Shown: positions 19,146 through 64,000, counted from the stretch's first letter. The stretch is DNA of 64,000 bases from an uncultured Solirubrobacteraceae bacterium (GCA_964588985.1 CAZPQW010000019.1:4632-68631), one strand, 5' to 3'. The notes: generated by a model from the sequence alone, not told the origin. Made by a program: numbers and translations.

Positions 19146-19148
19146 ATC

Positions 19149-26217: not shown

Positions 26218-26234
26218 CGACAGGGGAGGACGGA

Positions 26235-33096: not shown

Positions 33097-33126
33097 GCCG
33101 GCGGCGCCGAGGCCGGCGGCGCCGAG
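33097..33126. repeat. 15-bp in-frame tandem duplication gccggcggcgccgag x2 (plus an 11-nt partial copy)
   Basis: Encodes the repeated AAGLG AAGLG in the Tat signal h-region of the same gene. Confidence 0.9.
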
Positions 33127-33227
33127 GCCGGCGGCGCGCGCGAGCAGCTCTCTCCGCGTAGTTTCTCCGGTGTCCGTCACGGGGCGAGCGTAACTCCGAC
33201 GACCCGGGCGTCAAAGCGCCGGGCCGA

Positions 33228-45512: not shown

Positions 45513-46376
45513 TCAGGCCAGCAGCGAGCGTGGGATCGCGCCCACGCCGATCAGCCCCGGGCCGGTGTAGGTGCCGATCACCGGCCCGACCTCCGAGGTG
45601 AACACGGGCTCCGAGTCGAAGATCTCGCGGCAGCGCTCGATCAGGCGCTGGGACTGCTCGGGCGCCTGGATGTGCTGAACCACCCATCCGTCAGCGCCCC
45701 TGTCGTGCAGCTCCTGGGCGTAGGCGACCATCCGCTCGAACGCGCGGCCGGCGGTGCGGACCCGCTCGACGGGCACGATCTCGTACTCGAGCGAGAGGAT
45801 CGGCTTGATCTTCAGCGTGCCGCCGATCCAGGCCTGCGCCTTGCCGACCCTGCCGCCGCGCTTGAGGTACTCGAGCGTGTCGAGGCAGAACCAGATCTGC
45901 AGCGCCTTGCGCGCCTCGCGCACGCGCGCCACCACCGCGTCTTTGTCAGCGCCGGCGCGGGCGGCGGCGCAGGCGGCGAGCACGAGCAGGCCCATCCCGC
46001 CACACGCGGTTTCGCCGTCGATGACCTCCACCCGCTCGCCCAGGCCGCGCTCGGCGAGCAGGCCATGAGCCTGGCGCGCGGCCTCGCACGTTCCCGAGAT
46101 CCCGCCCGCGAGGTGGATCGACACGACGTCCTGGCCGGCGTCGATCAGCGGTTCCCACACGGCCAGGAAGTCGCCGATCGACGGCTGTGACGTGGTGGGG
46201 AGTTCCGCGTCGCGGCCGAGGCGCTCGTAGAACGCGTCGAAGCCGTCCATCTCGAGCTCACGTTGGGGCTGGCTCTGCCAGCCCACGTAAAGGCTCACCT
46301 GATGCAGGCCTTCGGCCTGCGCGAGTGCGCTGGGGAGGTAGCTGGTGCTGTCGGCTGCGACCGCGACGGGAGTCAT
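45513..46376 (-). CDS. DegV family fatty-acid-binding protein
   Basis: VAVAADSTSYLP start and DegV-type length and pattern. Confidence 0.85.
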   Translation of the reverse strand: MTPVAVAADSTSYLPSALAQAEGLHQVSLYVGWQSQPQRELEMDGFDAFYERLGRDAELPTTSQPSIGDFLAVWEPLIDAGQDVVSIHLAGGISGTCEAARQAHGLLAERGLGERVEVIDGETACGGMGLLVLAACAAARAGADKDAVVARVREARKALQIWFCLDTLEYLKRGGRVGKAQAWIGGTLKIKPILSLEYEIVPVERVRTAGRAFERMVAYAQELHDRGADGWVVQHIQAPEQSQRLIERCREIFDSEPVFTSEVGPVIGTYTGPGLIGVGAIPRSLLA

Positions 46377-47675: not shown

Positions 47676-48836
47676 GTGGCGCGCTCCGAGGAGGACCTGA
47701 AGAACCCGTTCCGCTTCGGTGCGCTCGCGTTGGACGCGGCGTTCACCGACCGCGAGCGCGAGATCGAGGAGCTGAGCGCGGACATCCGCAACGGGCAGGA
47801 CGTGGTCCTGTTCGCGCCGCGCCGCTACGGCAAGTCCTCACTGATCTGGCGCGTGGCGCAGCAGCTCGTGACCGAGGACGTGCTGGTGGCGCAGGTCGAC
47901 CTGATGCGCACCCCCACGCGGGAGAAGCTCGCGGAGCGGCTCGCCAAGTCGATCCACGAGGAGATCGCCTCGCGCCTGTTTCGCACGCGCGAGCGGGTGC
48001 GCGTGTTCGCGGGCCTGCGGATCAAACCGACCGTGACCGTCGACCCGGACGACGGCTCGCTGTCGTTCAGCTTCGAAGCGCGCGCCGACCGGCAGGACAT
48101 CGACGCGACGCTCGAAGGGCTCCTCGCCCTGCCGGGGCGTCTGGCCGCGGAGCGCAGACGGTCGGTGGCGCTGGTGTTCGACGAGTTCCAGGAGGTCGTG
48201 GACATCGACCCCGGGCTGCCGAAGCTGATGCGCTCGGTCTTCCAGGAGCAGCCGGAGGTCGCCCACGTGTACCTCGGCAGCCGCCGGCACATGATGGAGC
48301 GGATCTTCAACGACGAGAACGAGCCGTTCTGGCGCAGCGCGAAGCAGGTCGAGCTCGGCCCGATCCCCGTGGATCTGTTCGCTCGCTATGCGATCGCGCG
48401 GTTCGCCGACACCGCGAAGGAGCTGGAGCAGAACACCTGCGAGCGCGTGCTCGAGCTGACGGGAGGCCATCCTTACGGCACGCAGGAGGCGCTGTACTTC
48501 CTGTGGGAGGAGACCCCCGCGGGAGGAATCGCCGAAGCGGAGCGCCTGGAGCAGGCGATCGACGCGCTGCTGCGCTCCGAGCACTCGCACTTCAGCCTGC
48601 TGTGGTCGCGGGCCGCCGCGGCGCAGCGCCGCGTGCTGCAGGCACTCTCCGCCGAGCAGCCCGGACGCCCCCTCAGCAGCGACTACCGCCTGCGCCACGC
48701 GCTGCCGTCGACCGCGACGGTGCAGACAGCCCTGAACGCGCTCGGCGCGGCGGAAGTGATCGAGCGGGTCGAGCGCGGCGAGTACCGCATCGCCGAGCCG
48801 TTCCTCGCGGAATGGATCGCGCGCAACGAGAGCTAG
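47676..48836 (+). CDS. AAA ATPase of the archaeal-ATPase (PF01637-like) type
   Basis: FTDREREIEEL...VLFAPRRYGKSSL (Walker A) and VFDEFQEV (Walker B). Confidence 0.8.
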   Translation: MARSEEDLKNPFRFGALALDAAFTDREREIEELSADIRNGQDVVLFAPRRYGKSSLIWRVAQQLVTEDVLVAQVDLMRTPTREKLAERLAKSIHEEIASRLFRTRERVRVFAGLRIKPTVTVDPDDGSLSFSFEARADRQDIDATLEGLLALPGRLAAERRRSVALVFDEFQEVVDIDPGLPKLMRSVFQEQPEVAHVYLGSRRHMMERIFNDENEPFWRSAKQVELGPIPVDLFARYAIARFADTAKELEQNTCERVLELTGGHPYGTQEALYFLWEETPAGGIAEAERLEQAIDALLRSEHSHFSLLWSRAAAAQRRVLQALSAEQPGRPLSSDYRLRHALPSTATVQTALNALGAAEVIERVERGEYRIAEPFLAEWIARNES

Positions 48837-49270
48837 CGCGCTCTCGTCGACCGTCGCCCCGCAATCACACGGACCGTATTTTCACCGGATTGGACGGTGC
48901 GTTCTCGGGCTTAAGCTGGACGGCCAGCCGACCAATTGTGGCCGTTTGCAGGAATAACGAGGGTTGACTACAGTGTCCCGCCTGTGGTACCGTCGCCGGG
49001 ACATGATGTCAAGCGTCGCACGGGGAATGGAACGCCCAGACCTCCGAAACCAAGCGATCCGCCTTCGGTGGGTTGGGATCGGAGTGTCCAGACGCGGCTT
49101 CAGGCTTGACCTTGACGCAGGCGATGTTTTCTGCCAAGGTCGGGCACACAGCACCATTGACATTAGTTCTGTCGATGGCTACGACTGGCTCGGGACGTCT
49201 CTGTCCTGAGGAGGGGACATAAAGGGTCGGTCGATCTAACCCTAGAGGGAATCAAAGGAGCGGTGGATAG

Positions 49271-50044
49271 ATGACACGCATCAAGATCATGGGGCTCAGC
49301 CTCGTCGCGGTGTTCGCGATGGCCGCGATGGCCGCATCGAGCGCGTCGGCCACGCCGACGTTCTACGAATGTGCGAAGGCAGCCAAGGTAGGCAAATTCT
49401 ACACTGGCAAATACAACGACAAAAACTGCACCGAAGTCAACGGCAAATCCGAAGGTAAATACGAACTCAAAGAAGGCGTTGGCAAAGGCAAGGTCTTCAA
49501 GGGCAAGGGCGCAGCCGCCGTTCTGCACACGCCCGCCGTCGGTGGAGAAGTGACCTGCAAAGGCAGCAAGGACGAAGGTAAGAACACTCTGACGGGCCAG
49601 AAGGAAGTCAAAGTGACCTTCACCGGCTGCGCCAGCCTCGGTAAAACCTGCAACTCCGTAGGCGCGAAATCAGGCGAAATCAAAACCAACCCGCTGGCCG
49701 GCACGCTCGGCTACATCTCCGCGACTGGCCCCAAAGTGGGCGTCAGCCTCACGGGTGAAGCTGGCAAACCGTCCGCTGAATTCGCATGTGGAACGGGCGC
49801 AGGCTCGCTGAACATCGTCACCACCGGCGCCGTCATCGGCGAAATCACGGGTGACATCAACAAAATCTCGAAGGAAGCAACCGACGCGTTCACTGTCACG
49901 GGCGAAGGTTTCCAGACGGTGACCAGCTTCGAAGGTGGACCGCTGGAAGTCCTCGAGACGAGCATCAACGGTTCGCCTAACTTCGAATCAGGCGAGCAGA
50001 CGACGACCCTGAACAAGGGCGAAGCACTCGAGATCAAAGCGTAG
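49271..50044 (+). CDS. Secreted six-Cys protein, paralogue 1 (unknown family)
   Basis: Signal peptide ending SASA-TP and an aaggag RBS. About 55-60% identity to 50182..50970 by hand alignment. Strong GAA/AAA codon bias. Confidence 0.75.
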   Translation: MTRIKIMGLSLVAVFAMAAMAASSASATPTFYECAKAAKVGKFYTGKYNDKNCTEVNGKSEGKYELKEGVGKGKVFKGKGAAAVLHTPAVGGEVTCKGSKDEGKNTLTGQKEVKVTFTGCASLGKTCNSVGAKSGEIKTNPLAGTLGYISATGPKVGVSLTGEAGKPSAEFACGTGAGSLNIVTTGAVIGEITGDINKISKEATDAFTVTGEGFQTVTSFEGGPLEVLETSINGSPNFESGEQTTTLNKGEALEIKA

Positions 50045-50094
50045 TGATCCTGCCGCCAATGCTCCGCTCTGGAGCAGGCAGCTAGGTGAGTTGG

Positions 50095-50126
50095 CTTGTG
50101 GGGCTCCATTCGTGGAGCCCCACAAG
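50095..50126 (+). terminator. Hairpin terminator candidate (14-bp perfect stem, TTCG loop)
   Basis: cttgtggggctcca-ttcg-tggagccccacaag followed by tcttt, about 50 nt after the paralogue-1 stop. Confidence 0.65.
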
Positions 50127-50181
50127 TCTTTAAGCAGCAGCTCGGCACGCAATCAGCGGGTTCGGGTATGGGCACCCTGTT

Positions 50182-50970
50182 GTGTGGGCAACTCAAGGGG
50201 AGGGCATACAGATGCGACGGATGAGGATCGTCGGGCTCAGCACGCTCGCAGCACTGGCAGTGGCCGCGATAGTGGCCGCGGGTGCATCGGCCGCGCCGAC
50301 GTACTACGAATGCGCGAAAACGGCCAAAGGGGTTGGCAAATACCTGGTCGGCTGCACCGAAGAAGCCGCGGAAGGGGCGGGCACGTACGAAATCCAGGAA
50401 GGGATCGGCAAAGGCAAAGCGTTCAAAGGCAAAGGCGGAGCGCTGATCTTCCACATCCCGGCGAACGGCGGCGAATTCACGTGCAAAGCAAGCACCGAAG
50501 AAGGTCACTACACGGTCACCGGCCAGGAAAAAGTCAAAATCACGATCACCGGCTGCGAGATCCTCGGCAAAACCTGCCAGACGGCTGGTGCCAAATTGGG
50601 CGAAGTCAAAACGAACTCGCTCTCGGGATCCCTTGGCTATATCTCCGCCGTTGGGCCCAAAATAGGTATCGCCCTAGCCGGTGAAGAAGGTACCCCGTGG
50701 GCCGTATTCGAATGCGGGAGCGGTGCCGGGACACTGCACTTCGTCGTCACGAGTGCTGTCATCGGCGAACTCACCGGCGACGTCAACCACTTCGGCAAAG
50801 AAGTCACGAAGGCGTACACCGTGACCGGTGGAGGCTTTCAGACGGTCGCACGGTTCGAAGGTGGCCCGCTGCAGGTTCTCGAATACTCCATCAACGAATC
50901 GATCGTGACCGAAATGGGTATCGCGACCACGACGGCCGCGAAAGGCGAAAACCTGGAGATCAAAGCCTAG
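50182..50970 (+). CDS. Secreted six-Cys protein, paralogue 2 (unknown family)
   Basis: Signal peptide ending ASA-AP and a ggggaggg RBS. Collinear with paralogue 1, including all six Cys and the C-terminal LEIKA. Confidence 0.75.
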   Translation: MWATQGEGIQMRRMRIVGLSTLAALAVAAIVAAGASAAPTYYECAKTAKGVGKYLVGCTEEAAEGAGTYEIQEGIGKGKAFKGKGGALIFHIPANGGEFTCKASTEEGHYTVTGQEKVKITITGCEILGKTCQTAGAKLGEVKTNSLSGSLGYISAVGPKIGIALAGEEGTPWAVFECGSGAGTLHFVVTSAVIGELTGDVNHFGKEVTKAYTVTGGGFQTVARFEGGPLQVLEYSINESIVTEMGIATTTAAKGENLEIKA

Positions 50971-51013
50971 GAGATCGCCTCGACGCGTGCCATAGGGGGC
51001 GCGGGGTCGGGCG

Positions 51014-51059
51014 ACGCGGCATGTGGAGATCGTGATGCCAGGTCCTCCACATGCCGCGT
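51014..51059 (+). other. 15-bp perfect inverted repeat with a 16-nt loop
   Basis: acgcggcatgtggag (51014-51028) pairs with ctccacatgccgcgt (51045-51059). There is no U-tract. It lies between paralogue 2 and the large NHL gene. Confidence 0.5.
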
Positions 51060-51169
51060 GCGCTCAGACGCCGATCGGCCGTTTGCGATGGCGAACAGAG
51101 ACGCGATGGTTCTCCCTTGACAAGCGGCAAGCGGGCACTAGACTGCCTGCAGGGATGAGGGAGACGACG

Positions 51170-54100
51170 ATGAGCGACGCTGGCGGCGCTGGCGCTCAAC
51201 TGCAGATGTCACGCCGCGCAAGAAGCGCCGTGCTCGGGATGCTGGGTGCGTGTGCGATCGGATCGTTGCTCATGAGTGCGCCTGCGCTCGCCCTCATCCA
51301 GCGCGGGCATGTCTTCAGTCCGTCCGCGTCGTTCGGCAGCAGCGGCTCCGGTGAAGGCCAGCTGTCGAGCCCGTCGGCCGTCGCCGTCAGCGAAGTGGGG
51401 GTCGCGGCGGGCGATGTGTACGTCGCCGATCGCGGCAACAACAGAGTCGAGCAGTTCGACTCATCGGGCAAATTCGTAGCTGCATGGGGCTGGGGCGTGA
51501 AGGACGGCGAAAAAGAAACCGAGGTCTGCACGAGCGGAGAAGGCTGCAAACCCGGTCTCGCGGGCGCGGGCAAAGGAAGCGAAGGCTTCCATCTCGGCAA
51601 AGGCCAGATCGTCTCGCCGATCGCGATCGCCGTGGACAACTCGAAATCCGCCTCGGCCGGCGACGTTTACGTGGTGGCTAGCGTCGTGCCGGAAAAGTCC
51701 TATGTGGACAAGTTCGGACCGAATGGCGAATACATCCGTCAGCTCACGAAGAAAGAAGAAACCGAATTCAACGGTCGCGTGGAGGGCGTGGCGGTCGATG
51801 GCAACGGTGTGGTGTGGGTCGATTGGAGCGAACAGGAGATCACCAACTTCACCGGTGCGGAACCGAACAAACGCGTGAACAAAGAAGTGGAACTCGAATC
51901 GGGTGTCGGCAACCTCCGGCCGGGTCTGGCGGCGGACTCCAGCGGGCATCTGTACGTGAACTCCGAACCGGCTGAACTCTTCGAACAGGGCACGGAAGGC
52001 ACCAGTGCCGAAGAAGGCACGGGCGAAGGCGGCGAAGAACCGTGCGAAGCGTCCCCCTGCTACGCCTCGAAGCTCGCCATGACGGGCGAAGAACCGGGCG
52101 CCGTGCTGACCTTGCACATGAACCACCAGAACACAAGCGGCATCGCTGCTGACCTTGGCACGAACGACGTCTACGTCGACAACCTCACGAGCGTGACCTC
52201 GTACAGCTCGACGGGACGGACGATCGAGCGCTTTGGCACAGGCGACCTGACGCACGCCGCCGGTCTCGCCGTTCACGCAGGCGACGGCGACGTCTACGTC
52301 GCGGACTCCGCGACGGGCAAAATCGATGTCTTCGTTCCCGAACCCGCCGCTGCCCCGAACGTCGACGAAATATCGGTCGGGAAGATCACGACCACAACGG
52401 CCGAACTCGGTGCCGAGGTCGACGCCAAAGGGGCCGAAACGACCGTCACCTTCCAATACGGCACCTCGAGCTGCTCGGGAGGGTCGTGCGTGTCCGTCCC
52501 AGCGTCCGAACCGACGATCCCGACGAGCTTCGGCGACCGCAGCAGGAGCATTCCGCTGGAAGGTCTCATCGCTGGCACCACCTACCACTACCGGGTCATC
52601 GCCAAAAACTCCTTCGGCACCTTGACGAGCGAAGAACGCACGTTCACGACGCAGTCCGCGACGTCGTTTGCGCTGCTCGACGGGCGGGGCTGGGAGCAGG
52701 TCTCGCCGTCCGCCAAGAACGGCGCAGGATTCGAATCGATCGCCAAGGAAGGCGGCGTGATCCAGGCATCCGTGGAAGGCAGCGGCATCACGTTCGTTGG
52801 CACGGGGCCGGACGAAGTCGAAACGGAAGGCAACCGCAGCCCGGAATTCACACAGATCCTCGCCAATCGCGTGACCAACGGCGAAGGCAAGGCTGAATGG
52901 ATCTCCAAGGACATCAACACGCCGAGCGACACCGCCACCGGGATTGAAGCTGGCAAGGCGCCGGAGTACCAGGCCTTCTCGCCCGACCTCTCAGCCGCGA
53001 TCGTCAGGCCCAAGTCGCCCGAACCGCTGCTTTCCGAAGAAGCCTCGGAAGTCACGCCGTATCTGCGCGAAAACGCGCACTGCGGGCCCGTGCCCTCGGC
53101 CTGCTACAAGCCGCTGGTAACAGGCAAGGAAGGCTATGCAAACGTGCCTTCGGGCACGAAATTCGGCGGCACCGTGAGCCGCGGACTCCAGCTTCTGTCG
53201 ACGGAACCCGACCTGCGTCACGTTGTCCTGCAGTCGGAAGTCCCGCTCACCGAAGAACCGGCCGCGGCCGGTCCAAACCTGTACGAGTGGAGCGAAGGCC
53301 ATCTCCAGCTGGTCAACGCGCTGCCGGGCGCCGGCGGCCCTGCGGTGGCGGCGAAGCTCGGTACGGATAACAACGGCGTCAGGCACGCGCTCGCCGACGG
53401 CGGTGCAAGGGTCTTCTGGACCGCCTCGACGGACGTCCCGCTCGAAGGAAGTCAGCGCCTCTACGTCCGCGACATGGTCAAGGAAGAAACCCTGCGGCTC
53501 GACATGCCCCAGGAAGGCGTCAAAGAACAGACCTCCGAAGGAGCTGGCTTTGCCGCCGCCAACGCGGAAGGCTCGCGGGTGTTCTTCACCGACGTCGAAC
53601 CGCTGACCCCTGGCGCGCGGGCCTCGCGCGAAGCGGGAGGCCCAGACCTGTACGCGTGCGACATCGGCGAACAGGCGGGCAAACTGACGTGCTCGCTGCA
53701 CGACCTGACCGAAGACACCGAAGCCGGTGGCGAAACGGCTGACGTCCAGGGCACCGTGCTCGGGGAGAGCGAAGACGGCTCGACGGTTTACTTCGTCGCA
53801 AACGGGGTGCTCGACAAAACCGCCAACGCGCAGAGCGAAAAAGCCACACCCGGCGAATGCGAACTCGACAACCGAGGCTCGCAGGCGACCTGCAACCTCT
53901 ACGTCGAGCACTACAACGCGGGCGAAGGCGCATGGGAAGCGCCGAGGTTCGTCGCGACGCTCTCAAACGAAGACGAACCGGACTGGTACAGCTTTGGCCA
54001 CGGCGGAGGTCTGACGGAAATGACCTCCCGCGTCTCGCCGAACGGCCGCTACCTGTCGTTCATGTCCGAGCGGAGCCTGACGGGGTACGACAACCGCGAC

Positions 54101-54955
54101 GTCAACAGCGGCGCTCTCGACGAGGAGGTCTTCCTCTACGACACGAGCAGCGGCAAGCTCGTGTGCGCCTCGTGCGACCCGACGCAGGGCCGACCGACGG
54201 GTGTCTTCGACACTGGGGAAGTCAGCGAAGAAGGCTTGGGGCTGCTCGTGGATCGCCCGGAAACCTGGGGCGGACGGTGGCTTGCCGGCAGCGTCCCCGG
54301 GTGGACCCCGGTGAGCGAGAACCGCTCCACGTATCAGTCGCGCTACCTGTCCGACAGCGGCAGGCTGTTCTTCAACAGCGCCGACCAGCTCGTCCCAGCA
54401 GACACGAACTCCAAGGAGGACGTCTACGAGTACGAGCCCGCGGGTCTCGGCTCGTGCGCCAGCGAAACGGGCTGTGTCGGGCTCCTCTCCTCCGGCAGGT
54501 CGGAAAAGGAATCTGCGTTCCTGGACGCGAGCGTCACGGGCAACGACGTGTTCTTCCTCACCGCTGGCGCGCTCGTCGCGGGCGACGCCGACACGAACTT
54601 CGATGTATACGACGCGCGAGTCTGCGGGCCGGGTGGCTGTGTGTCTTCGAGCAGCGAATCGAGCGCGACGTGCCAGGAAGTCGAAACCTGCCGTCCGGCG
54701 GCCCCCACCGAGCCGGTGTTCTCGAGTCCGGCGACCACGGCCCCTTCCGGCTCCAGCAACCTCACGCCTTCCCCGCCCGTGAAAACCCCGGTCAAAGTGG
54801 TCGTCAAACCGACCCGCACGCAACTGCTCGCGAAGGCGCTGAAGGCCTGCAAGAAGAACAAGAGCAAGCACAGGCGAGCGGTTTGCGAAAGGGCCGCGCG
54901 TAAGAAGTACGCCGCCAAGAAGGCGAGCAAGAGCACGCGCAGGAGAGGTCGATGA
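51170..54955 (+). CDS. Large secreted NHL-repeat / FN3-like / beta-propeller protein with a Lys-rich two-Cys tail
   Basis: Signal peptide (SAVLGMLGACAIGSLLMSAPALA). About six NHL-type blades (GDVYVADRGNNRVEQFDSSGKF and others). An FN3-like segment (TTYHYRVIAKNSFG). TolB-like blades (SPNGRYLSFMS, DVYEYEP). Start 51170 (gagggag RBS) or 51206. Confidence 0.8.
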   Translation: MSDAGGAGAQLQMSRRARSAVLGMLGACAIGSLLMSAPALALIQRGHVFSPSASFGSSGSGEGQLSSPSAVAVSEVGVAAGDVYVADRGNNRVEQFDSSGKFVAAWGWGVKDGEKETEVCTSGEGCKPGLAGAGKGSEGFHLGKGQIVSPIAIAVDNSKSASAGDVYVVASVVPEKSYVDKFGPNGEYIRQLTKKEETEFNGRVEGVAVDGNGVVWVDWSEQEITNFTGAEPNKRVNKEVELESGVGNLRPGLAADSSGHLYVNSEPAELFEQGTEGTSAEEGTGEGGEEPCEASPCYASKLAMTGEEPGAVLTLHMNHQNTSGIAADLGTNDVYVDNLTSVTSYSSTGRTIERFGTGDLTHAAGLAVHAGDGDVYVADSATGKIDVFVPEPAAAPNVDEISVGKITTTTAELGAEVDAKGAETTVTFQYGTSSCSGGSCVSVPASEPTIPTSFGDRSRSIPLEGLIAGTTYHYRVIAKNSFGTLTSEERTFTTQSATSFALLDGRGWEQVSPSAKNGAGFESIAKEGGVIQASVEGSGITFVGTGPDEVETEGNRSPEFTQILANRVTNGEGKAEWISKDINTPSDTATGIEAGKAPEYQAFSPDLSAAIVRPKSPEPLLSEEASEVTPYLRENAHCGPVPSACYKPLVTGKEGYANVPSGTKFGGTVSRGLQLLSTEPDLRHVVLQSEVPLTEEPAAAGPNLYEWSEGHLQLVNALPGAGGPAVAAKLGTDNNGVRHALADGGARVFWTASTDVPLEGSQRLYVRDMVKEETLRLDMPQEGVKEQTSEGAGFAAANAEGSRVFFTDVEPLTPGARASREAGGPDLYACDIGEQAGKLTCSLHDLTEDTEAGGETADVQGTVLGESEDGSTVYFVANGVLDKTANAQSEKATPGECELDNRGSQATCNLYVEHYNAGEGAWEAPRFVATLSNEDEPDWYSFGHGGGLTEMTSRVSPNGRYLSFMSERSLTGYDNRDVNSGALDEEVFLYDTSSGKLVCASCDPTQGRPTGVFDTGEVSEEGLGLLVDRPETWGGRWLAGSVPGWTPVSENRSTYQSRYLSDSGRLFFNSADQLVPADTNSKEDVYEYEPAGLGSCASETGCVGLLSSGRSEKESAFLDASVTGNDVFFLTAGALVAGDADTNFDVYDARVCGPGGCVSSSSESSATCQEVETCRPAAPTEPVFSSPATTAPSGSSNLTPSPPVKTPVKVVVKPTRTQLLAKALKACKKNKSKHRRAVCERAARKKYAAKKASKSTRRRGR

Positions 54956-57900
54956 CGAGCGCTCGCTCTCGCGGTCGACGGCTCCTCGGTCTCCTCGTGG
55001 CCCTGTGTTCGAGCGTGACGCTCGTGGCGGCGTTCGGCGCCGCGCCGGCACTCGCGGCGGGATCGTGGTGGAGCCTGACCTCCAGTGCGGCGCCGACGAA
55101 CCTGTCGCCGACAGAAGAAGGCCAGATACTCGTGATGGCCACCAACCGCGGTTATGCGGACGCGAAAGCCAGCGCCGGACACCCGCTCAAGGTGATAGAC
55201 CACCTGCCGGTCGGGCTCGAAGTCGGTGCCGAAGGCGCGCGGGCCGTGTTCCTCAGCCTTCCGATCAGCTGTCCGGTGGCGACCGGACAGACCGTTGTGT
55301 GCGAACTGCCACAGGCGGTCCCCGCGGGGGAAGACCTGGAAATCAAAATCGGAGTGAAGGCAACGGTTCCCAGCGGTACGACCTTGAGCAACGAACTCGT
55401 GATCGAAGGCGGCGAAGGCCAAGCGGTCACGCCGCCTGTGAAAGCTCCGGTGCGCGTGGACAGCGCCGCGACCCAGTTCGGTGTCGAAAAGTACGAACTG
55501 AAGCCGGAAGGCGAAGACGGTTCCGTCGACGCGCAGGCCGGCTCTCACCCGTTCCAGCTCACGACCACGTTCAACCTCAACAAGACGATCGAATTCAACA
55601 CCAACTACAAACACCTCGAAGCGACCGCTCCGATCCTCCCTCGCGATCTGCGCTTCGTGCTGCCGCCAGGCCTGCTCGGCAACATCACGGTCGTGCCTCA
55701 GTGCTCGGGCGTCGACTTCGCCACGATCGGCCAGGAGGACATCAACCTGTGTCCCTCCGACACCGCCATCGGCACCGCGCGAGTGACGATCAACGAACCT
55801 ACGGTGTTCGGAGGTGCGCTCACCGAAGCGGTCCCGGTCTTCAACCTGGCGCCCGAAAAAGGCGAACCCGCCCGCTTCGGTCTCGAGATCGACAAAGTGC
55901 CCGTCGTCTTCAACACCGCTGTGCGAACCGGCAGCGACTACGCCGTCGAAGTCAGCGTCGACAACGCGTCGCAGGCCGCGGCGCTGCTCAGCACCGAGGT
56001 GACGTTCTGGGGTGTGCCCGGGGACCCTCGTCACGACCAGTCACGTGGATGGGAGTGCATCGGTCACGGGCACTTCGTCGCCAAAGCCGAACCGGCGACG
56101 CCATGCGAACCGCTGGAAGAAACCAGCCCGCCGGCCTTCCTCACGCTGCCGACGTCCTGCTCGAGCACGCCGGTCACCACGGTCACCGGCGACTCGTGGC
56201 CCACCGGCCCGAGCCGCACCGTGAGCCAGCTTGCCGCCAGCTACGAATTCCCATCGGCGCTTCAGAACTGCGACCTGCTCGGCTTCTCACCCGCGATCAG
56301 CGTGGAACCGGAAACCCATGCGGCGAACGAACCGAGCGGACTGGCTGTCGACGTGACGGTGCCGCAGGCGTCGACGATCTCCGCCACCGAACTGGCCGAG
56401 GCCGACGCCAAGGAAGCCACCGTGGCGCTGCCCGCGGGCGTGCTCGCGAGTCCCGGCGCCGCCAACGGGCTGCAGGCGTGCTTCACCACGAGCATCGGTC
56501 TCGAAGCCGGGTTCTCCGAACCGAGCCAGCTCGAAAACGACCACTTCAACGCGGGCGCGGCGTCATGCCCCGACGGCTCGAAGATCGGCACCGCGGTGAT
56601 CGAAACGCCGCTGCTCAAAAACCCGCTCGCTGGTTTCGTCTATCTCGCCAACCAGGACACGAACCTGGTGGAAGAAAAGCTGGTGCTGTATCTGGTCGCC
56701 GAAGACCCGGTCTCGGGCGTGCGCGTGAAGCTCGCGGGCGACGTGCACGTGGATCCGACGACCGGCCAGCTCGTCTCGACGTTCAAGAACACCCCGCCCG
56801 AGCCGTTCTCCGAGCTGAAGCTGAGCTTCTTCGGTGGAGGCCGCGCGTCGCAGTCAACGCCCGCGCAGTGCGGTACCTACACGACCCACGCGACGTTCGT
56901 CCCCTGGTCGGGGACCTCGCCGGCGCCCGTGTCCTCGAGCTTCGAAATCACCTCCGGACCGAAGGGCACGGCCTGCGCCAACCCGCAGCCGTTCGCTCCG
57001 TCCTTCCAGGCCGGCTCGGTCGACAACCGGGCGGGCGCGTTCACGAACTTCTCGCTGACGATCGGCCACGCCGACACCGACCAGTGGCTGCAGGCGCTGA
57101 CCGTCCACCTGCCGTCGGGCGTCGCCGCGCTGCTCTCCACGGTCACGCCGTGCCCCGAACCCGCCGCGGGTCAGGAATGGGCGTGCGGGCCGGAAAGCCT
57201 GATCGGGCACTCGACCGCGAGCTCGGGCCTCGGCGAAGACCCGTTCACGCTCGGGGGCAGCGTGTATCTCACCGTGGGCTACGACAAAGCGCCGTTCGGC
57301 CTGCTGGTGGTCACGCCCGCGGACGCCGGCCCGTTCCACCTCGGCAACGTGGACGTGCGCTCGCGCATCGAAGTCGACCCGACCACGGCGGCGGTGACGA
57401 TCGTCAGCGATCCGTTCCCGACATACGTGAAGGGCGTGCCGGTGCAGCTCAAACAGATCAACGTGACCGTCGATCGCCCCGGCTTCGAGTTCAACCCCAC
57501 CAACTGCAACCAGATGGCGATCACCGGATCTCTCAGCAGTACTGGGGGGCTCAGCGAGTCGGTCTCCTCGCCCTTCCAGGTCGCAAACTGCGCGACGCTC
57601 CCGTTCAGCCCGAAGCTGACCGCGAGCACACAGGCGCAGGCGAGCAAAGCGAACGGAGCGGCGCTCAACGTCAAGGTCGAATCGACGGGGCTCGGACAGG
57701 CGAACATCGCGAAGGTCGACCTGCAGCTGCCGGTCGCGCTGCCGTCGCGCCTGTCGACGATCCAGAAAGCGTGCCTCGAAGTGGTCTTCAAGGCCAACCC
57801 GGCCGCGTGTGACGAAGGCTCGAACATCGGCTACGCCACGATCCACACGCCGGTACTCAAGGACCCGCTCACCGGGCCCGCGTATCTCGTCGCCAAGGGC

Positions 57901-58353
57901 GGCGCGGCGTTCCCCGACGTGGAGTTCGTGCTCCAGGGCGAAGGGATCCTGCTGATCCTCGACGGCAAGACGGACATCAAAAAAGGCATCACCTACTCGC
58001 GCTTCGAAGCCACCCCCGACGCGCCCTTCACGACCTTCGAAACGGTCCTGCCGACCGGGCCGCACTCCGCGCTCACAGCTTACGTCCCCGCCAGCCGCAA
58101 CTTCAACGTGTGCGGCACGAAGCTGGAAATGCCCACCGAAATCGTCGGCCAGAACGGCGCGGTGATCAGGCAGACCACGAACATCGTCGCCAACGGCTGC
58201 GCCGCCTCTCACCCGCTTACCCGCGCCCAGCTGCTCGCGAAGGCGCTCAAGACGTGCAGGAAGGCCAAGAAGAAGAGCAAGCGCGTCAGCTGCGAAAAGC
58301 AGGCCCGCAAGAAGTACGGGCCGAAGGCCAAGAAGGCGAAGAAGAAGCATTAA
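54952..58353 (+). CDS. Large secreted beta-sandwich-rich protein (adhesin-like) with the same Lys-rich two-Cys tail
   Basis: ATGA overlap with the upstream stop. Signal peptide LLGLLVALCSSVTLVAAFGAAPALA. The N-terminal TNLSP..GQILVMATNRGYA resembles DUF11/CARDB-type repeats. No LPXTG motif. Confidence 0.8.
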   Translation: MTSARSRGRRLLGLLVALCSSVTLVAAFGAAPALAAGSWWSLTSSAAPTNLSPTEEGQILVMATNRGYADAKASAGHPLKVIDHLPVGLEVGAEGARAVFLSLPISCPVATGQTVVCELPQAVPAGEDLEIKIGVKATVPSGTTLSNELVIEGGEGQAVTPPVKAPVRVDSAATQFGVEKYELKPEGEDGSVDAQAGSHPFQLTTTFNLNKTIEFNTNYKHLEATAPILPRDLRFVLPPGLLGNITVVPQCSGVDFATIGQEDINLCPSDTAIGTARVTINEPTVFGGALTEAVPVFNLAPEKGEPARFGLEIDKVPVVFNTAVRTGSDYAVEVSVDNASQAAALLSTEVTFWGVPGDPRHDQSRGWECIGHGHFVAKAEPATPCEPLEETSPPAFLTLPTSCSSTPVTTVTGDSWPTGPSRTVSQLAASYEFPSALQNCDLLGFSPAISVEPETHAANEPSGLAVDVTVPQASTISATELAEADAKEATVALPAGVLASPGAANGLQACFTTSIGLEAGFSEPSQLENDHFNAGAASCPDGSKIGTAVIETPLLKNPLAGFVYLANQDTNLVEEKLVLYLVAEDPVSGVRVKLAGDVHVDPTTGQLVSTFKNTPPEPFSELKLSFFGGGRASQSTPAQCGTYTTHATFVPWSGTSPAPVSSSFEITSGPKGTACANPQPFAPSFQAGSVDNRAGAFTNFSLTIGHADTDQWLQALTVHLPSGVAALLSTVTPCPEPAAGQEWACGPESLIGHSTASSGLGEDPFTLGGSVYLTVGYDKAPFGLLVVTPADAGPFHLGNVDVRSRIEVDPTTAAVTIVSDPFPTYVKGVPVQLKQINVTVDRPGFEFNPTNCNQMAITGSLSSTGGLSESVSSPFQVANCATLPFSPKLTASTQAQASKANGAALNVKVESTGLGQANIAKVDLQLPVALPSRLSTIQKACLEVVFKANPAACDEGSNIGYATIHTPVLKDPLTGPAYLVAKGGAAFPDVEFVLQGEGILLILDGKTDIKKGITYSRFEATPDAPFTTFETVLPTGPHSALTAYVPASRNFNVCGTKLEMPTEIVGQNGAVIRQTTNIVANGCAASHPLTRAQLLAKALKTCRKAKKKSKRVSCEKQARKKYGPKAKKAKKKH

Positions 58354-59038: not shown

Positions 59039-59737
59039 TCAGGCCGACAGCTCGGTCGCGAGCGCCACCGGCTCGCCGTCGAGCGCGTTCAGCGCGCGCT
59101 CCAGCGACATCGCCAGGCACGTGAAGCTGGGGGTGTCGCGGACGGTGTAGCGCGACGCCTCGGTGGTGCGCAGCTGCTGCACGAGGTCGAGGAACGTGCC
59201 CACGTCGTCGGTGTCGAACGCGACCACGAACTCCTGATCGTCGAGGCCGAACGAGTACGTGGTGTGGTTGTCCACGCCGGGGTATTCGCGGCCTACCTGG
59301 ATGTGGCCCTGCATGATCCTCCATCGCTCCTCCGCGGGCAGCGCGTACCACTCGCGCGACTTCACGAACGGGTACACGAACACGTACTTGCCGCGGAACC
59401 CGCGCACCACGTTGCGCTCGTCGTCGGAGTACTCCGAGCTCTTGCGCATGCCGAGGAACGAGTGGGGGATGCTCGCCCACTGCATCAACCCGCTCTGCAG
59501 CAGCACCACGTGGAACTCGTGGATACGGTCGAGGTTCTCAGCCTCGGAGACGAGCAGCAGCTCGGCGTCCCCGCGCGTGCCCACGAGCGAGAAGCTCTGC
59601 AGCATGTGGCCGTCGGCGAAGTCCTCGCACGCAGCCGCGAACTCGCGCTTGTCCTGCGCACGTCGCTCACCGTCGAGGCGCCGCCACGCCGGGTCGAGCT
59701 GCAGGAACGTGTACTTCACGAAGCGGCGTGTGGCCAT
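59039..59737 (-). CDS. hemQ: Chlorite-dismutase-family coproheme decarboxylase (HemQ/ChdC-like)
   Basis: YTFLQLDPAWRRL..., YVFVYPFVKSREWY, VAFDTDD pattern. Confidence 0.8.
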   Translation of the reverse strand: MATRRFVKYTFLQLDPAWRRLDGERRAQDKREFAAACEDFADGHMLQSFSLVGTRGDAELLLVSEAENLDRIHEFHVVLLQSGLMQWASIPHSFLGMRKSSEYSDDERNVVRGFRGKYVFVYPFVKSREWYALPAEERWRIMQGHIQVGREYPGVDNHTTYSFGLDDQEFVVAFDTDDVGTFLDLVQQLRTTEASRYTVRDTPSFTCLAMSLERALNALDGEPVALATELSA

Positions 59738-59778
59738 ATACCGATTATCGCACCGCCGCGGCAGATAAAGTACCCGCT

Positions 59779-62136
59779 GTGCGGATCGCGCTGCTGTCGC
59801 CGTACTCGTGGACCTACCCAGGTGGGGTGACGCGCCACATCGAGGCCCTGTCCAGCGAGCTGGCCGCCGCCGGCCACGAGCCGCGGATCATCGCCCCGTT
59901 CGATCCCGACGACGCGCTCTCGCGCCGGCTGCACAGGGGAGCGGTCCCGCAGCGGCGCACCGTGGGGGAGGAGTTCGTCTCGCTCGGCCGCACCGTCGGG
60001 CTGCCGGCCAACGGCGCGGTGTCCAACATGGCGCTCACCCCGCACGCGGTGTTCGCGCTGCGTCGCGAGCTTCGCCAAGGGCGCTACGACGTGGTGCACA
60101 TCCACGAGCCGGTCGTGCCGGTCGTGGGCTGGGACGCGCTCTTCAGCGCCGGGGAGCTGCCGCTGGTGGGCACCTTCCACACCTACTCCGAGAACCTGCT
60201 CACCAACGGCATCGCCGCGATCCCGCTCGGCGGGCGGCGCCGGATGAACCGCCTGCACGTGCGCATCGCGGTGTCCGAGGCGGCCGCGTGGACCGCGCGG
60301 CGCTTCTACGGCGGGCGCTACCGCGTCGTCCCCAACGGCGTCCACCTCCAGGACGCGGCTCACGCGGCGCCCTCCGATTCCACGGCTCCGCTGCGCATCC
60401 TGTTCATCGGCCAGGCGGTCGAGCGCAAGGGCCTGCCGGTGCTGCTGCGCGCGTTCGAGGCGCTGCGCGACCAGATCCCGGCCACGCTCACACTCGCCGG
60501 CGCCGCCCCCGAGGAGGTCGCGCACATGATGCTCGACGACCGCGGCGTGGAGGCGCTCGGCAAGGTCTCCGAGCAGCGCAAGCAGGCCGAGCTGGCCCGC
60601 GCGGACGTGGTGTGCGCGCCGTCGCTGGGAGGAGAGAGCTTCGGCATGGTGCTGACTGAGGCGTTCGCCGCGGCTACGCCGGTCATCGCTTCGGACATCC
60701 CCGGCTACCGCGACGTGGTGCGCGACGAGCTCGACGGCCTGCTCGTGCCGGCGGGCGACGCGCTCGCGCTGGCCGAGTCCCTGCGCCGCCTCGCATTGGA
60801 CGAGCCGCTGCGCGCGCGGATGGCCGCCTCCGCGCGCGAGCGCGCGGAGCGCTTCGCGTGGCCGAGCGTCGCCGCGGAGGTGATCGACTGCTACGAGCGC
60901 GCGCGGGCGGTGGGGTCGCCGGTGAGCACCCTGGGTCGCGTGGCGGTTCGCCACGGCCTCGCGCCGGCGGACCTGCTGCCGAGAATCCCCGCCGAACGCC
61001 TCCCGAGCCTGCAGACCCAGCCGCCCGCGAGCGAGGAGACGGCGAGCGGGCGTACGCCGCGCGTGCTGCGACGGGGAGGGCTGCTCGTCTCGTGCATCCT
61101 CGGTCTCGTGCTCGCGCAGGTGGCGCTCGCGCACATCGGCGTCGATCGCGTGGTCGGCAGCCTGCTGGCCTCCAAGCCCGGCCTCGTGGCCGCCGGCCTG
61201 GGGTTGATGTGCGCGTCGATGTTCGCCCGCGCGTTTGCGTGGCACGCGATCCTCGCGTGCGCACCGACGTGGCGTCGCGCCAAACGCAGGGACGCGATGC
61301 AGGGCACGTTCATCGGCGTGCTGATGTCCGCGACGCTTCCCGCGCGCCTCGGCGAGCCATCGCGCGCGCTGATCGTCGCCCGCCGCCTCGGGCGCGCCCG
61401 CGAGACGCTGCCGGTGGTGCTCGGCACGATGGTCTCCCAGACGCTGCTGAACCTGCTCGCGCTGACGCTGCTCGGGATCGGCATGTTCTCCAGCGTCGAC
61501 CTGCTGAACGGCCATCACGGCGCGCTGATCGCGGCGGCCTTCACGCCGCTCGGGGTCGTGGCGGCGGTGCTGCTCGCGCCCGTGCTGATTCCACGCGCCG
61601 CCGGATCCCGCTCGGCGCGCCTGCAGGCGCTGACGGCCGGCCTGCGTCGTTCGCTCTCGCGCGTGCGCGACGGCCTGCGCGTCTTCAGGCATCCGCGCCA
61701 GGCGGCGCTCGCCACCGCGGCGCAGTTGGGGGCGTGGGCCCTGCAGTGGTTGAGCTGCTGGCTGTTGCTGATGGCGTTGGGGCTCGACGATCGTGTCGGG
61801 CTCGGCGGCGCGGCGGCGGTCCTGTTCGCGGTCAACGTCACCGCGGTGCTGCCCGCCACGCCCGCCAACGTGGGCGTCTTCCAGGCCGCGTGCGTCGCGG
61901 TCCTGGCGGGCGCCTACCACGTCTCCACCCCCGACGCGCTCGCCTACGGGATCGTCCTGCAGGTGGTCGAGGTACTGACCGCGCTGATGATGGGCCTGCC
62001 GGCGCTCGTCAACGAGGGTCTCTCGTGGCGCGACGTGCGGTTGCGCACGATGCACGCCGCGCCGGTGACGCTCGGCCCGCTGCCCGTAGGAGTCTCCTTG
62101 GGTGGGCGGGCTGTCGCTTCCGCCGCGGAACGCTAG
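59779..62136 (+). CDS. GT4 glycosyltransferase fused to a lysyl-PG-synthase-TM/UPF0104 flippase-like membrane domain
   Basis: N-terminal IALLSPYSWTYPGGV.RH and the EX7E region ESFGMVLTEAFAA. The C-terminal roughly 330 aa is polytopic. GTG 59779 is chosen to avoid overlap with hemQ. Confidence 0.8.
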   Translation: MRIALLSPYSWTYPGGVTRHIEALSSELAAAGHEPRIIAPFDPDDALSRRLHRGAVPQRRTVGEEFVSLGRTVGLPANGAVSNMALTPHAVFALRRELRQGRYDVVHIHEPVVPVVGWDALFSAGELPLVGTFHTYSENLLTNGIAAIPLGGRRRMNRLHVRIAVSEAAAWTARRFYGGRYRVVPNGVHLQDAAHAAPSDSTAPLRILFIGQAVERKGLPVLLRAFEALRDQIPATLTLAGAAPEEVAHMMLDDRGVEALGKVSEQRKQAELARADVVCAPSLGGESFGMVLTEAFAAATPVIASDIPGYRDVVRDELDGLLVPAGDALALAESLRRLALDEPLRARMAASARERAERFAWPSVAAEVIDCYERARAVGSPVSTLGRVAVRHGLAPADLLPRIPAERLPSLQTQPPASEETASGRTPRVLRRGGLLVSCILGLVLAQVALAHIGVDRVVGSLLASKPGLVAAGLGLMCASMFARAFAWHAILACAPTWRRAKRRDAMQGTFIGVLMSATLPARLGEPSRALIVARRLGRARETLPVVLGTMVSQTLLNLLALTLLGIGMFSSVDLLNGHHGALIAAAFTPLGVVAAVLLAPVLIPRAAGSRSARLQALTAGLRRSLSRVRDGLRVFRHPRQAALATAAQLGAWALQWLSCWLLLMALGLDDRVGLGGAAAVLFAVNVTAVLPATPANVGVFQAACVAVLAGAYHVSTPDALAYGIVLQVVEVLTALMMGLPALVNEGLSWRDVRLRTMHAAPVTLGPLPVGVSLGGRAVASAAER

Positions 62137-63103: not shown

Positions 63104-63388
63104 CTCTCAGCCGAGCAGTTCTCAGTCGAATTTTTCGCGGAGTTCCCTTGCAGGGTTCAGGTTATTCGTATATGCGGCCGATATGCGACCCGTGCGGAGC
63201 TACCTGGCCCCCGAAGAGAAGGACGCGCGCCCGCGGCGTGCCGGTGGATGGCGGCCGCTGGACGCTCGCTCGACGCTGATCGACACGCGCCTCGTGCGCG
63301 CGGAGATGGCGCGGCTGCGCGCTCCACGGCCCGCGACCGAAATCCACGCCGCGCGAATCGTCCGCTCGACGCTCACCGGTAGGTCGTG

Positions 63389-64000
63389 ATGCAGGCTCCT
63401 GTGGGGAGCGCGACCAAAGCCTCGAGTCGCTTCACGCTGCACTCGTGGTGGGTCTACCTCTGCGCGATGGCGCTGCTCACGGGCGGCTACGCCTTCGGCC
63501 AGATCTCCGGCCCCGCGTGGCTCAAGAGCGGGCTCGTGTTCAACCTGATCGGCGGTGCGACGATCGCCGCGCTGATCGTCGGCGGCAGGAAAAACTCGGG
63601 CAGGAGCTGCCTGCCGTGGTACCTGTTCGCGGTCGGGCAGGGGCTGTTCGTGACGAGCGACGTGCTCTCGTCGAACTACGAACGCCTCTTCGGGCACGCG
63701 ATGACGTTCCCGTCGATCGCCGACCCCTTCCACCTCGCGTTCTATCCGTTTCTCGTGGCGGGCATGCTGCTGCTGATCCACGAACGCGACGAGGGGCGCG
63801 ATCGCGACGGCCTGATCGACGCGCTGATCGTCACCGCGGCCCTGGCCACGCTGCTGTGGGTCTACCTGATCGCGCCGTACGCGGACAGCGAAACGAGCTC
63901 GCTGCTGAAAAGCCTGACCTCGATCGCGTATCCCGCGATGGACATCCTCGTGCTCGGCGTGGTCGCGCGTGTGGCCGCCGGCAGCCACCGTCGCGAGCCG
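63389..64000 (+). CDS. Polytopic membrane (sensor-type N-terminal) protein, 3' end outside window
   Basis: Not in the ORF track because it has no stop in the window. The frame is open from ATG 63389 to the edge and encodes at least five hydrophobic helices. The 262-aa minus-strand ORF 63200..63988 is its shadow. Confidence 0.6.
   Translation, partial: MQAPVGSATKASSRFTLHSWWVYLCAMALLTGGYAFGQISGPAWLKSGLVFNLIGGATIAALIVGGRKNSGRSCLPWYLFAVGQGLFVTSDVLSSNYERLFGHAMTFPSIADPFHLAFYPFLVAGMLLLIHERDEGRDRDGLIDALIVTAALATLLWVYLIAPYADSETSSLLKSLTSIAYPAMDILVLGVVARVAAGSHRREP

Follow-up and report, generated by a model that had tools for sequence, protein, structure and literature searches.

Glutamate and lysine codon choice follows protein location at and beyond a conserved surface-protein locus of Solirubrobacteraceae

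Introduction

Synonymous codon choice is tied to gene control or to protein export in several described systems. In Streptomyces, genes with TTA codons are controlled through bldA, which encodes tRNA-Leu-UAA, and transcripts tunable through modification are exemplified by mycobacterial codon-biased translation. Clusters of non-optimal codons occur in signal peptides, and conserved rare codons at specific positions serve targeting by the signal recognition particle (SRP) and cotranslational folding. The present work describes four genes for secreted proteins at positions 49271-58353 of a 64,000-nucleotide stretch of DNA (the window) from an uncultured Solirubrobacteraceae bacterium (GCA_964588985.1, CAZPQW010000019.1:4632-68631). 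In these genes, and in exported proteins elsewhere in the same lineage, Glu is encoded preferentially by GAA and, less strictly, Lys by AAA.

According to the passage of PMC11705076 that cites Li et al. 2023, the mRNAs of secreted effectors of Magnaporthe oryzae are enriched in AAA, CAA and GAA and need thiolation of their tRNAs at U34 (s2U34). As far as that passage describes the system, the likeness lies in a subset of secreted proteins encoded with A-ending, U34-read Lys and Glu codons, the G-ending synonyms being read by other tRNAs. The same passage shows the differences: the M. oryzae system is eukaryotic, acts at the level of the gene, includes CAA and has experimentally proven control of translation efficiency. 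Here, by comparison, GAA is enriched 5.4-fold, AAA 3.1-fold and CAA 1.5-fold, and the preference follows topology inside open reading frames (ORFs), with fixed exceptions at individual sites.

The bldA system and the tunable transcripts share with the present case a high-GC actinobacterial host and a rare A-ending codon that marks a functional class with many extracellular members. They differ in that one or few codons per gene act on the gene as a whole, whereas here the change extends to about 80-96% of the roughly 100 Glu codons in each gene, passes over cytoplasmic domains and leaves invariant GAG codons in place. In the rare-codon effects linked to signal peptides and SRP, synonymous choice is likewise tied to export and some positions are conserved. 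Those effects are weak, involve many codons and are local, being confined to the signal peptide or to 35-40 codons downstream, while the preference described here covers the entire exported part, concerns essentially Glu and Lys only and is almost complete in penetrance. Literature searches returned no report of location-dependent Glu and Lys codon use, and the rule is apparently undescribed so far.

Codon usage of the four genes

The window is a piece of a high-GC actinobacterial metagenome contig, JGI 3300028800 Ga0265338_10000532, with a GC content of about 0.68. Its four co-directional genes, all on the plus strand, are referred to as small1 (49271-50044, 257 aa), small2 (50212-50970, 252 aa counted from the ATG, with the ORF opening at a GTG at 50182), big1 (51170-54955, 1261 aa from the ATG) and big2 (54952-58353, 1133 aa). 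Joint Genome Institute (JGI) gene calls for the source contig gave identical coordinates. All four products, as read from ORF and translation, have signal-peptide-like N-termini and are taken as secreted. The stop of big1 and the start of big2 are joined in an ATGA overlap, through which the two genes are translationally coupled. An initial annotation, made from the sequence of the window, had described four signal-peptide genes in this interval with the last two coupled by ATGA, and its coordinates, N-termini and overlap were all verified.

The fraction GAA/(GAA+GAG) was 0.86, 0.91, 0.83 and 0.84 in small1, small2, big1 and big2 (18/21, 21/23, 90/109 and 53/63 codons) and 0.00-0.27 in nearly all other genes of the window. 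Pooled, GAA was used at 182 of 216 Glu codons in the four genes versus 134 of 1061 in 36 other window genes (Fisher p = 2e-96). For Lys, AAA/(AAA+AAG) was 0.59, 0.94, 0.40 and 0.27 in the same order (16/27 in small1, 17/18 in small2 and 20/50 in big1), and 67/146 pooled versus 42/398 in the other window genes (p = 5e-18). The overwhelming use of GAA and AAA that had been noted for the cluster is borne out by these counts. The example given for it, GAA 7/7 and AAA 7/7 in codons 33-75 of small2, is essentially right, the numbers being 6/6 and 7/7 when counted from the ATG. CAA was at the same level as elsewhere (0.05 versus 0.08, p = 0.49). AAC was slightly raised (0.98 versus 0.90, p = 0.009), as were C-ending codons, and in the remaining codon families the four genes differed from the window by at most 0.12. 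Since only Glu and Lys deviate and the other families match the window, the earlier view of a selective shift rather than a simple low-GC import is sustained.

Several properties of the DNA or mRNA were considered as causes of the shift and rejected. Avoidance of a DNA or RNA motif does not fit, because off-frame GAG was not depleted (6.2 versus 7.4 and 16.9 versus 10.2 per 1000 codons), nor does a general A-enrichment or selection for low mRNA structure, because GCA, ACA, GGA, CCA, TCA, GTA and CGA were unaltered. Avoidance of Shine-Dalgarno-like sequences was dismissed, as GAA was favoured before every base and big1 contains an invariant GAGGAGG motif. Codon-pair or nearest-neighbour context was dismissed as well, as TAC-GAA-TGY is always GAA and TAC-GAG-TGG always GAG; GAA was favoured both before and after each base, with neighbour effects on the Glu codon of at most 0.1. 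For Lys, AAA was used at a fraction of 0.28 beside another Lys and 0.43 otherwise. The AAG-rich basic tails of the large proteins and the weaker Lys effect are thus partly due to avoidance of AAA beside other Lys codons. GAA formed no 5'-to-3' gradient or ramp, and conserved Glu was not enriched in GAA in an Akashi-type accuracy test.

Codon choice and protein location

A homologue scan with one genome per species gave 30 loci (L-numbered). Codon usage was compared in about 0.75 Mb of sequence sampled from about 30 metagenome-assembled genomes (MAGs), MAG and metagenome contigs being used throughout. Signal peptides and topologies were assigned by simple hydropathy rules together with Pfam identities, and genes lacking a ready-made call were delimited by similarly simple heuristics. 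Between 107 exported and 232 cytoplasmic genes, the fraction of GAA was 0.80 versus 0.15 (5.4-fold), of AAA 0.40 versus 0.13 (3.1-fold), of AGA 0.035 versus 0.014 (2.4-fold), of AGG 0.112 versus 0.055 (2.0-fold) and of CAA 0.13 versus 0.088 (1.5-fold). All remaining codons were within 0.7-1.4-fold, CTT being at 1.4-fold. A rule maintained by selection throughout the lineage emerges from these and the following data: Glu outside the cytoplasmic membrane is encoded by GAA and cytoplasmic Glu by GAG. Lys follows the rule less strictly, and Arg (AGR codons) and Gln (CAA) follow it weakly.

The GAA-rich genes found outside the cluster were unrelated to it and all exported. Phosphoesterases/phospholipases C with a signal of the twin-arginine translocation (Tat) type had GAA fractions of 0.53-0.61 in three species, secreted RCC1-repeat proteins 0.74 and 0.86, an Mce/MlaD protein 0.77 and a ZnuA lipoprotein 0.52. 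The loop of an MMPL fragment had GAA at 10 of 16 Glu codons, and other lipoproteins were GAA-rich too. The infC region, which is unlinked to the cluster, encodes a secreted Pro/Thr-rich protein with GAA 4/6 and AAA 9/12 and a membrane-anchored cupredoxin that was also biased. The bias had been regarded as a property of the cluster; it tracks extracytoplasmic location instead, also within single ORFs, a behaviour that is predicted by none of the gene-level explanations. A secreted CAP-domain protein unlinked to the cluster but encoded in the window (30207-30962, minus strand) leans the same way at a small count (GAA 4/6).

Counted as whole genes, membrane proteins were unbiased (GAA 0.17). When extracytoplasmic and cytoplasmic segments of single ORFs were pooled separately, GAA was used at 76/93 Glu codons in the former and 9/57 in the latter (p = 8e-16). 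The clearest switch within an ORF was seen in two tandem HD_5 membrane proteins of locus L014 (2431-4215 and 4418-6046). Their cytoplasmic HD domains had GAA 1/17 and 3/17, while the tails after the third transmembrane helix had 15/16 and 10/10. These external tails are long and rich in Pro, Ala, Lys and Glu, and both end in the motif CAHGKSCEAPGHNK. In the cupredoxin, the cytoplasmic N-terminal tail was encoded with GAG 3/3 and AAG 2/2 and the outside part with GAA 4/7. Large external loops of FtsX-like permeases were GAA-rich, and a GT-C-like protein was GAA-rich in its C-terminal external domain only. Disorder or fast evolution was rejected as the determinant, since the HD-protein external tails are GAA 25/26 and a cytoplasmic low-complexity sequence is all GAG: initiation factor 3 (IF3) of locus L030 (20470-20769) has a long acidic C-terminal extension with EPQA-containing repeats in which GAG is used 16/16.

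The within-ORF switch bears on the possibility of a gene-level regulon of the exoproteome, in which translation of GAA/AAA-rich mRNAs would wait for sufficient amounts, charging or thiolation of tRNA-Glu-UUC and tRNA-Lys-UUU, in the manner of bldA/TTA control or modification-tunable transcripts. Both codons are among those that s2U34 tRNAs read, scavenging enzymes (phosphoesterase, Mce, ZnuA) are biased alike, and the AAA/CAA/GAA-rich secreted effectors that need tRNA thiolation, as cited in PMC11705076, offer a precedent to the extent that they are described there. Such a regulon is nevertheless improbable. The HD domains stay at GAG next to GAA-encoded tails, near-complete conversion would be needless for a regulon, a gene-level switch does not produce sites that are always GAG, and CAA is barely enriched.

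No positional lag was observed. In 83 exported proteins the GAA fraction already reached 0.96 within codons 15-30 and 0.92 within codons 30-40, and Lys in the n-region of signal peptides was mostly AAG. Codons 15-40 are read before the signal peptide leaves the ribosome, so a coupling of codon choice to translocation fits poorly. It also speaks against elongation kinetics tuned to export, according to which the speed of GAA and AAA, or their readability under starvation, would keep segments translocation-competent or Sec unjammed, with GAG retained where fidelity matters. In its favour, codons switch at membrane boundaries within ORFs, and Sec substrates (0.8-0.9) have higher GAA fractions than the Tat-type phosphoesterases (0.53-0.61). 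Codons of minor isoacceptors are also slightly raised in exported genes (AGA 2.4-fold, AGG 2.0-fold, CAA 1.5-fold, CTT 1.4-fold), which fits the idea of starvation-robust isoacceptors reportedly put forward by Elf et al. in 2003. In addition to the missing lag, Tat substrates, which fold in the cytoplasm, are biased anyway, no recruitment of other rare or slow codons is seen, and opposite fixed choices at neighbouring sites such as E251 and E254 of the small proteins (see below) are left unexplained. Tuned kinetics are unlikely.

Conservation and descent

All 30 loci were in MAGs of uncultured Solirubrobacteraceae/Solirubrobacterales, several of them closed chromosomes of 2.6-3.9 Mb. The order small - big1 - big2 is retained at one chromosomal site in most loci, and many loci also have additional small paralogues or a related protein (about 290-320 aa). 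The site is flanked upstream by BolA, glutaredoxin, an Fe-S assembly protein, an ATPase and in some loci a methyltransferase, and downstream by HhH-GPD and a chlorite-dismutase-like HemQ. Co-localisation of the genes in related genomes had been proposed as a check, and the synteny in about 30 MAGs is positive in this respect.

The GAA fraction was 0.64-0.95 in every homologue of the cluster genes, down to about 35-40% protein identity, and 0.0-0.2 in neighbour genes; across 420 genes its distribution was bimodal. Other synonymous sites in the cluster alignments were scrambled or saturated, and the GAA bias must therefore be maintained by selection. The locus is a conserved, vertically inherited surface locus of Solirubrobacteraceae.

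Origin of the cluster from a donor with the same bias had been offered as one explanation. A local dip of the GC content to 0.59 would suit an import from a GAA/AAA-preferring source. Such an origin as a horizontally acquired island is scarcely credible: Glu and Lys alone deviate and the other codon families are host-like, the chromosomal context and flanks are shared in about 30 species, and the bias persists at 35-65% protein identity over saturating synonymous divergence. Searches for mobile-element, phage and defence families found none at the locus, and PHROGs and PADLOC gave no match for the four proteins. By way of contrast, the window contains a block at 19146-29042 that resembles an acquired restriction/defence island (Fic, ResIII helicase, N6/N4 DNA methylase, UvrD/PD-(D/E)XK nuclease). 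Its GC content is 0.60-0.65 versus 0.68-0.72 around it, and its Glu and Lys codons are ordinary (GAA 0.04-0.18).

Codon usage of highly expressed genes

Very high expression had been suggested as the cause of the bias. Locus L030 carries thrS-infC-rpmI-rplT, in which ThrS had GAA 2/66, IF3 GAA 5/35 and AAA 0/14, and L35 AAG 11/11. The IF3 sequence of L030 was used to locate the infC region of a closed, cluster-bearing chromosome, OY970308.1. In this chromosome IF3 had GAA 2/28 and AAA 1/14, L35 AAA 2/14, L20 GAA 0/6 and AAA 0/10, and PheS GAA 1/26, while the small protein had GAA 19/21 and AAA 19/23. Queries for EF-Tu, GroEL, DnaK, S12, L2, AtpD and RpoA, made with approximate E. coli sequences, found no match in the fetched loci. 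IF3, L35, L20, PheS and ThrS of two cluster-bearing genomes thus use GAG and AAG, and the preference is not that of highly expressed genes. The initial annotation had itself named such an outcome as one that would refute the expression idea.

Ordinary translational selection in super-abundant proteins, with GAA and AAA truly optimal, is accordingly very improbable. GAA, AAA and CAG are the optimal codons of the E. coli type, and classical bias of this kind shows the same preferences and involves single or multiple isoacceptors. Points in its favour are the accompanying small shifts (AAC 0.98 versus 0.90, more C-ending codons), the higher AAA fraction of the small proteins compared with the large ones, and the hairpins behind the small genes, which suggest high output. 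Unlike in classical bias, the reference ribosomal and translation factor genes are without the preference here and lie at or under the genomic average for GAA and AAA. The big proteins, Mce, RCC1 and lipoproteins would have to far out-express the ribosome, and neither switching within ORFs nor invariant GAG sites are predicted.

Codon choice at individual sites

Homologues of the small proteins (34), big1 (24) and big2 (22) were aligned. Among 31 conserved Glu columns, 15 were 100% GAA and 6 were 0% GAA, the latter all-GAG group having a binomial expectation of about 1e-9. The variance ratio was 18.4 for Glu and 11.6 for Lys, compared with 2.8-4.0 for control synonymous pairs and 11.0 for the non-adjacent Ser codons AGC/TCG. 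In GAA-dominant columns, GAG made up 6% of the alternatives and was no commoner than Asp or Gln codons. E251 of the small protein is GAA in 33/33 species, while E254, three residues on, is GAA in 2/32. Equal nucleotide contexts show opposite fixed choices of the Glu codon. Mutational flux (Asp to Glu and Asn to Lys by C-to-A), or a "young codon", was rejected as a cause because invariant columns are 100% GAA over 33 species and other synonymous sites are saturated.

Invariant GAG sites of big1 lie in the motifs YEW, DEEV and YEYEP. In the exported phosphoesterases, the family-invariant Glu motifs QENRSFD, EHPG, WDENGG and LETRFG are GAG in 3/3 species, and the catalytic Glu residues are all GAG. 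Aligned with the homologue 9gy2, the phosphoesterase sites coded by GAA correspond to Glu at 0/20 positions and those coded by GAG at 8/17 (p = 6e-4). In a second homologue, 8yk5, Glu is found at 4 of about 15 GAA sites.

Such single-site resolution raises the question whether GAA, and possibly AAA, are decoded unlike GAG and AAG, either ambiguously or with a modified residue linked to the tRNA that would be useful outside the cell. Only this model naturally predicts dependence on final location, the missing lag and the resolution to single sites. In the alignments GAA and GAG behave nearly like different amino acids (GAG 6% of alternatives), catalytic Glu is always GAG, and the phosphoesterase GAA sites are never Glu in 9gy2. 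Against it, when the cytoplasmic proteins DegV and PccB are compared with distant PDB homologues, GAA-coded sites are Glu (4/10) as often as GAG-coded sites (26/58). Glu does occur at GAA sites in 8yk5, and the four cluster proteins are charge-balanced only with GAA as an acidic residue. No candidate tRNA or enzyme was seen, tRNA genes having been sought in the window and loci L004-L036. Altered decoding is given about as little probability as the gene-level regulon. The same low probability attaches to GAA and AAA being functionally distinct from GAG and AAG such that U34 delivery would supply a compartment-specific "extra" residue, with GAG and AAG kept for the cytoplasm and catalytic sites. 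A clean codon reassignment was rejected on the DegV/PccB sites, which are a small sample, and on charge balance. GAA appears still to be read as Glu, and decoding to be standard.

Proposed explanation and its limits

The best joint explanation, which remains tentative, combines a vertically inherited surface locus, the compartment-dependent codon rule and selection of the isoacceptor for each residue. Selection would probably act residue by residue on the class of isoacceptor that decodes each Glu or Lys site, as our best guess. The classes would be the U34 tRNAs (tRNA-Glu-UUC and tRNA-Lys-UUU) and the C34 tRNAs (CUC and CUU), which may be unequal in decoding quality, meaning their fidelity or the exact nature of what they deliver. 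G-ending codons would be retained in all cytoplasmic protein and at sites that depend critically on exact Glu or Lys; elsewhere in an exported polypeptide the A-ending codons would be preferred. Selection of this residue-wise kind is favoured by the switch within ORFs, the missing lag, the biased Tat-signal substrates and the fixed invariant sites. The initial annotation had named U34 tRNAs, and as the readers of GAA and AAA these are the right place to look. Actinobacteria in general have separate UUC and CUC as well as separate UUU and CUU isoacceptors, and the same is assumed for this lineage. tRNA genes were absent from the window and from loci L004-L036.

Several points weigh against this explanation. 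The mechanistic step was reached by elimination, with the separate isoacceptors assumed, and pure fidelity does not explain the many invariant Glu residues of the small proteins that are always GAA. A site in the cytoplasmic protein DegV (45513-46376, minus strand), VIDG-E-TACGG, is GAA in 14/15 species on a background of about 7% GAA; it mirrors the invariant GAG sites of the exported proteins. The minus-strand gene at 31522-33180 has GAA 3/22; its 552-aa product carries a Tat-like RR signal and matches no Pfam family. This protein may not be exported, or Tat substrates may differ from Sec substrates. In the FtsX-like permeases, two short loops predicted to be cytoplasmic are not clean. Finally, the topologies come from crude hydropathy rules and not from a trained predictor, and the roughly 0.75 Mb sampled, drawn from about 30 MAGs, over-represents the neighbourhood of the locus.

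If the rule holds genome-wide, synonymous codons would encode the destination of a residue at single-residue resolution, and selection would have preserved this throughout a bacterial family. None of the current models of codon bias predicts it: expression, mutational bias, mRNA structure, signal-peptide ramps and tRNA-modification regulons each fail somewhere. If true, it would allow exported segments and membrane topology to be predicted from sequence alone in abundant uncultured soil bacteria; Solirubrobacteraceae rank among the most widespread actinobacterial families of soil. It would also offer a tractable natural system for asking whether isoacceptors are equivalent in fidelity, kinetics and cargo. 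Caution would be due in codon optimisation and with "alien gene" detectors, to which the entire exoproteome would look foreign. The locus itself encodes a conserved, wholly unannotated surface structure, with more than 350 small and more than 3900 big2 homologues.

Small proteins

Small1 and small2 are paralogues with 61% identity. The small2 protein is identical to P0019, located on a 916-kb NCBI contig. The mature small protein has about 230 aa and six invariant Cys residues, and its C-terminus NKGE-LEIKA is invariant (NKGEALEIKA in small1). Mature small1 contains 26 Lys and no Arg, mature small2 18 Lys and one Arg. Over the sampled genes, exported proteins contained 4.5% Lys and 4.0% Arg, and cytoplasmic proteins 2.1% Lys and 9.6% Arg. 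The near-absence of Arg from the small proteins stands out against the 9-10% Arg of cytoplasmic proteins in a genome of 68% GC. Annotation was attached to none of the 356 homologues of the small protein, and where source names exist they are Solirubrobacteraceae. An AlphaFold2 (AF2) model of small1 was all-beta, with a predicted local distance difference test score (pLDDT) of 89. No significant fold match was found in PDB (E at least 0.1) or BFVD (E at least 0.011), and a loose likeness to OmpX/OmpA-like barrels of 8-10 strands was insignificant. The copy number of the small gene varies from 1 to 4 among species.

Right behind small1, RNA folding gave a 16-bp perfect hairpin (50093-50128, plus strand); the 96-nt region folds with a free energy of -52.1 kcal/mol (z = -5.1, 0/200 shuffles as stable). 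A hairpin of about 15 bp was found in the same way behind small2 (51014-51059, plus strand; z = -6.3, 0/200 shuffles as stable). Neither has a clear U-tract. The hairpin behind small1 is probably a terminator, an attenuator or an mRNA stabiliser, and both could act as I-shaped terminators or, by stabilising mRNA, set the stoichiometry of the subunits. The Cys and Lys/Arg content, the hairpins and the copy number of the small protein fit a major structural subunit.

Large proteins

The initial annotation of big1 as an NHL/FN3/propeller protein agrees with the domain searches in part at high and in part at low score. NHL (PF01436) scored 31.8 bits at a Pfam cut-off of 20 and is thus a genuine NHL repeat, forming an N-terminal beta-propeller, and NHL domains in PDB matched at E 2e-18. 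Matches to Pur_ac_phosph_N, fn3 and PD40 were all under the Pfam cut-off and weak. The protein also contains a Pro/Ser/Thr linker. Big2, described as a 1133-aa protein rich in beta-sandwiches, has no Pfam or NCBIfam family, and its AF2 model (pLDDT 76.6) is in accord with that description, the protein being predicted entirely as a chain of Ig-like beta-sandwich domains. Foldseek returned Ig-like domains of PrgB (E 1.6e-11), followed by TEP/alpha2-macroglobulin, integrin legs and Bap. Several of the more than 3900 big2 homologues carry the JGI label "TIGR01451 family"; big2 of the window itself was unmatched in Pfam and NCBIfam.

Both large proteins end in a common Lys/Arg-rich helical hairpin with two Cys residues, at 54812-54952 in big1 and 58213-58350 in big2 (both plus strand). 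In big2 it comprises residues 1088-1133 or thereabouts, both Cys residues are conserved, and helices are predicted at 1091-1103 and 1108-1122. The two tails are homologous and share the motif QLLAKALKxC, a K/R-rich stretch and CE+xARKKY, the big1 version containing TQLLAKALKACKK followed by CERAARKKY. Within the fetched loci the tail is confined to the big1 and big2 families. Lys of the big1 tail is nearly all AAG, yet its Glu is GAA in 19/23 species. In the big2 tail Lys is AAG and Glu1115 is GAA in 18/18 species. The tail is probably an envelope anchor and may represent a new module for envelope anchoring or sorting.

In known surface proteins, chains of Ig-like domains form adhesin stalks (PrgB, Bap, DUF11/TIGR01451), which the modelled beta-sandwich chain of big2 resembles (PrgB E 1.6e-11), and big1 is like NHL/PD40 surface propellers in having a bona fide NHL propeller. 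Unlike known adhesins, the locus is without an LPXTG/sortase signal, an SLH or other known anchor domain and a Pfam repeat family, and has the lineage-specific basic two-Cys hairpin in their place. No LPXTG motif was seen by eye in the four protein sequences, and Pfam and NCBIfam scans of the four found no SLH or other recognised cell-wall-binding domain. Family searches among the neighbourhood genes found no sortase, secretion ATPase or pilus families, in agreement with what had been noted. The view of the products as secreted surface or envelope proteins is supported. With low confidence, the locus may encode a surface fibre or layer in which the small proteins would be the major subunit and big1 and big2 the anchor or adhesin parts. 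Two points speak against such a fibre: assembly or anchoring machinery was not found, and the small protein is without a structural relative.

Non-coding sequences and neighbouring genes

The intergenic region ahead of small1 (48837-49270, plus strand) has 434 bp and contains an AAGGAG ribosome-binding site; a promoter-consensus scan gave no match in it. The scan found one site at the locus, with 0.7 expected by chance. This weak candidate, TTGACA-16-TAGACT, lies ahead of big1 (51117-51144, plus strand) and is promoter-like by consensus match only. A search of the locus against Rfam matched no family.

A PF01637 ATPase gene (47676-48836) is the upstream neighbour of the locus in the window. 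In most genomes a Methyltransf_24 gene (8935-9603 in L004; also in L007, L009-L013, L026 and L036) and the PF01637 ATPase gene lie directly upstream; the Methyltransf_24 gene is absent from the locus in the window. Just downstream, at 59728-62136, a GT4 glycosyltransferase is fused to an LPG_synthase_TM (MprF-like) membrane domain. The window ends in a partial gene for a sensor with multiple transmembrane segments (63383-64000), in which GAA is used at 3/5 and AAA at 3/4 codons.

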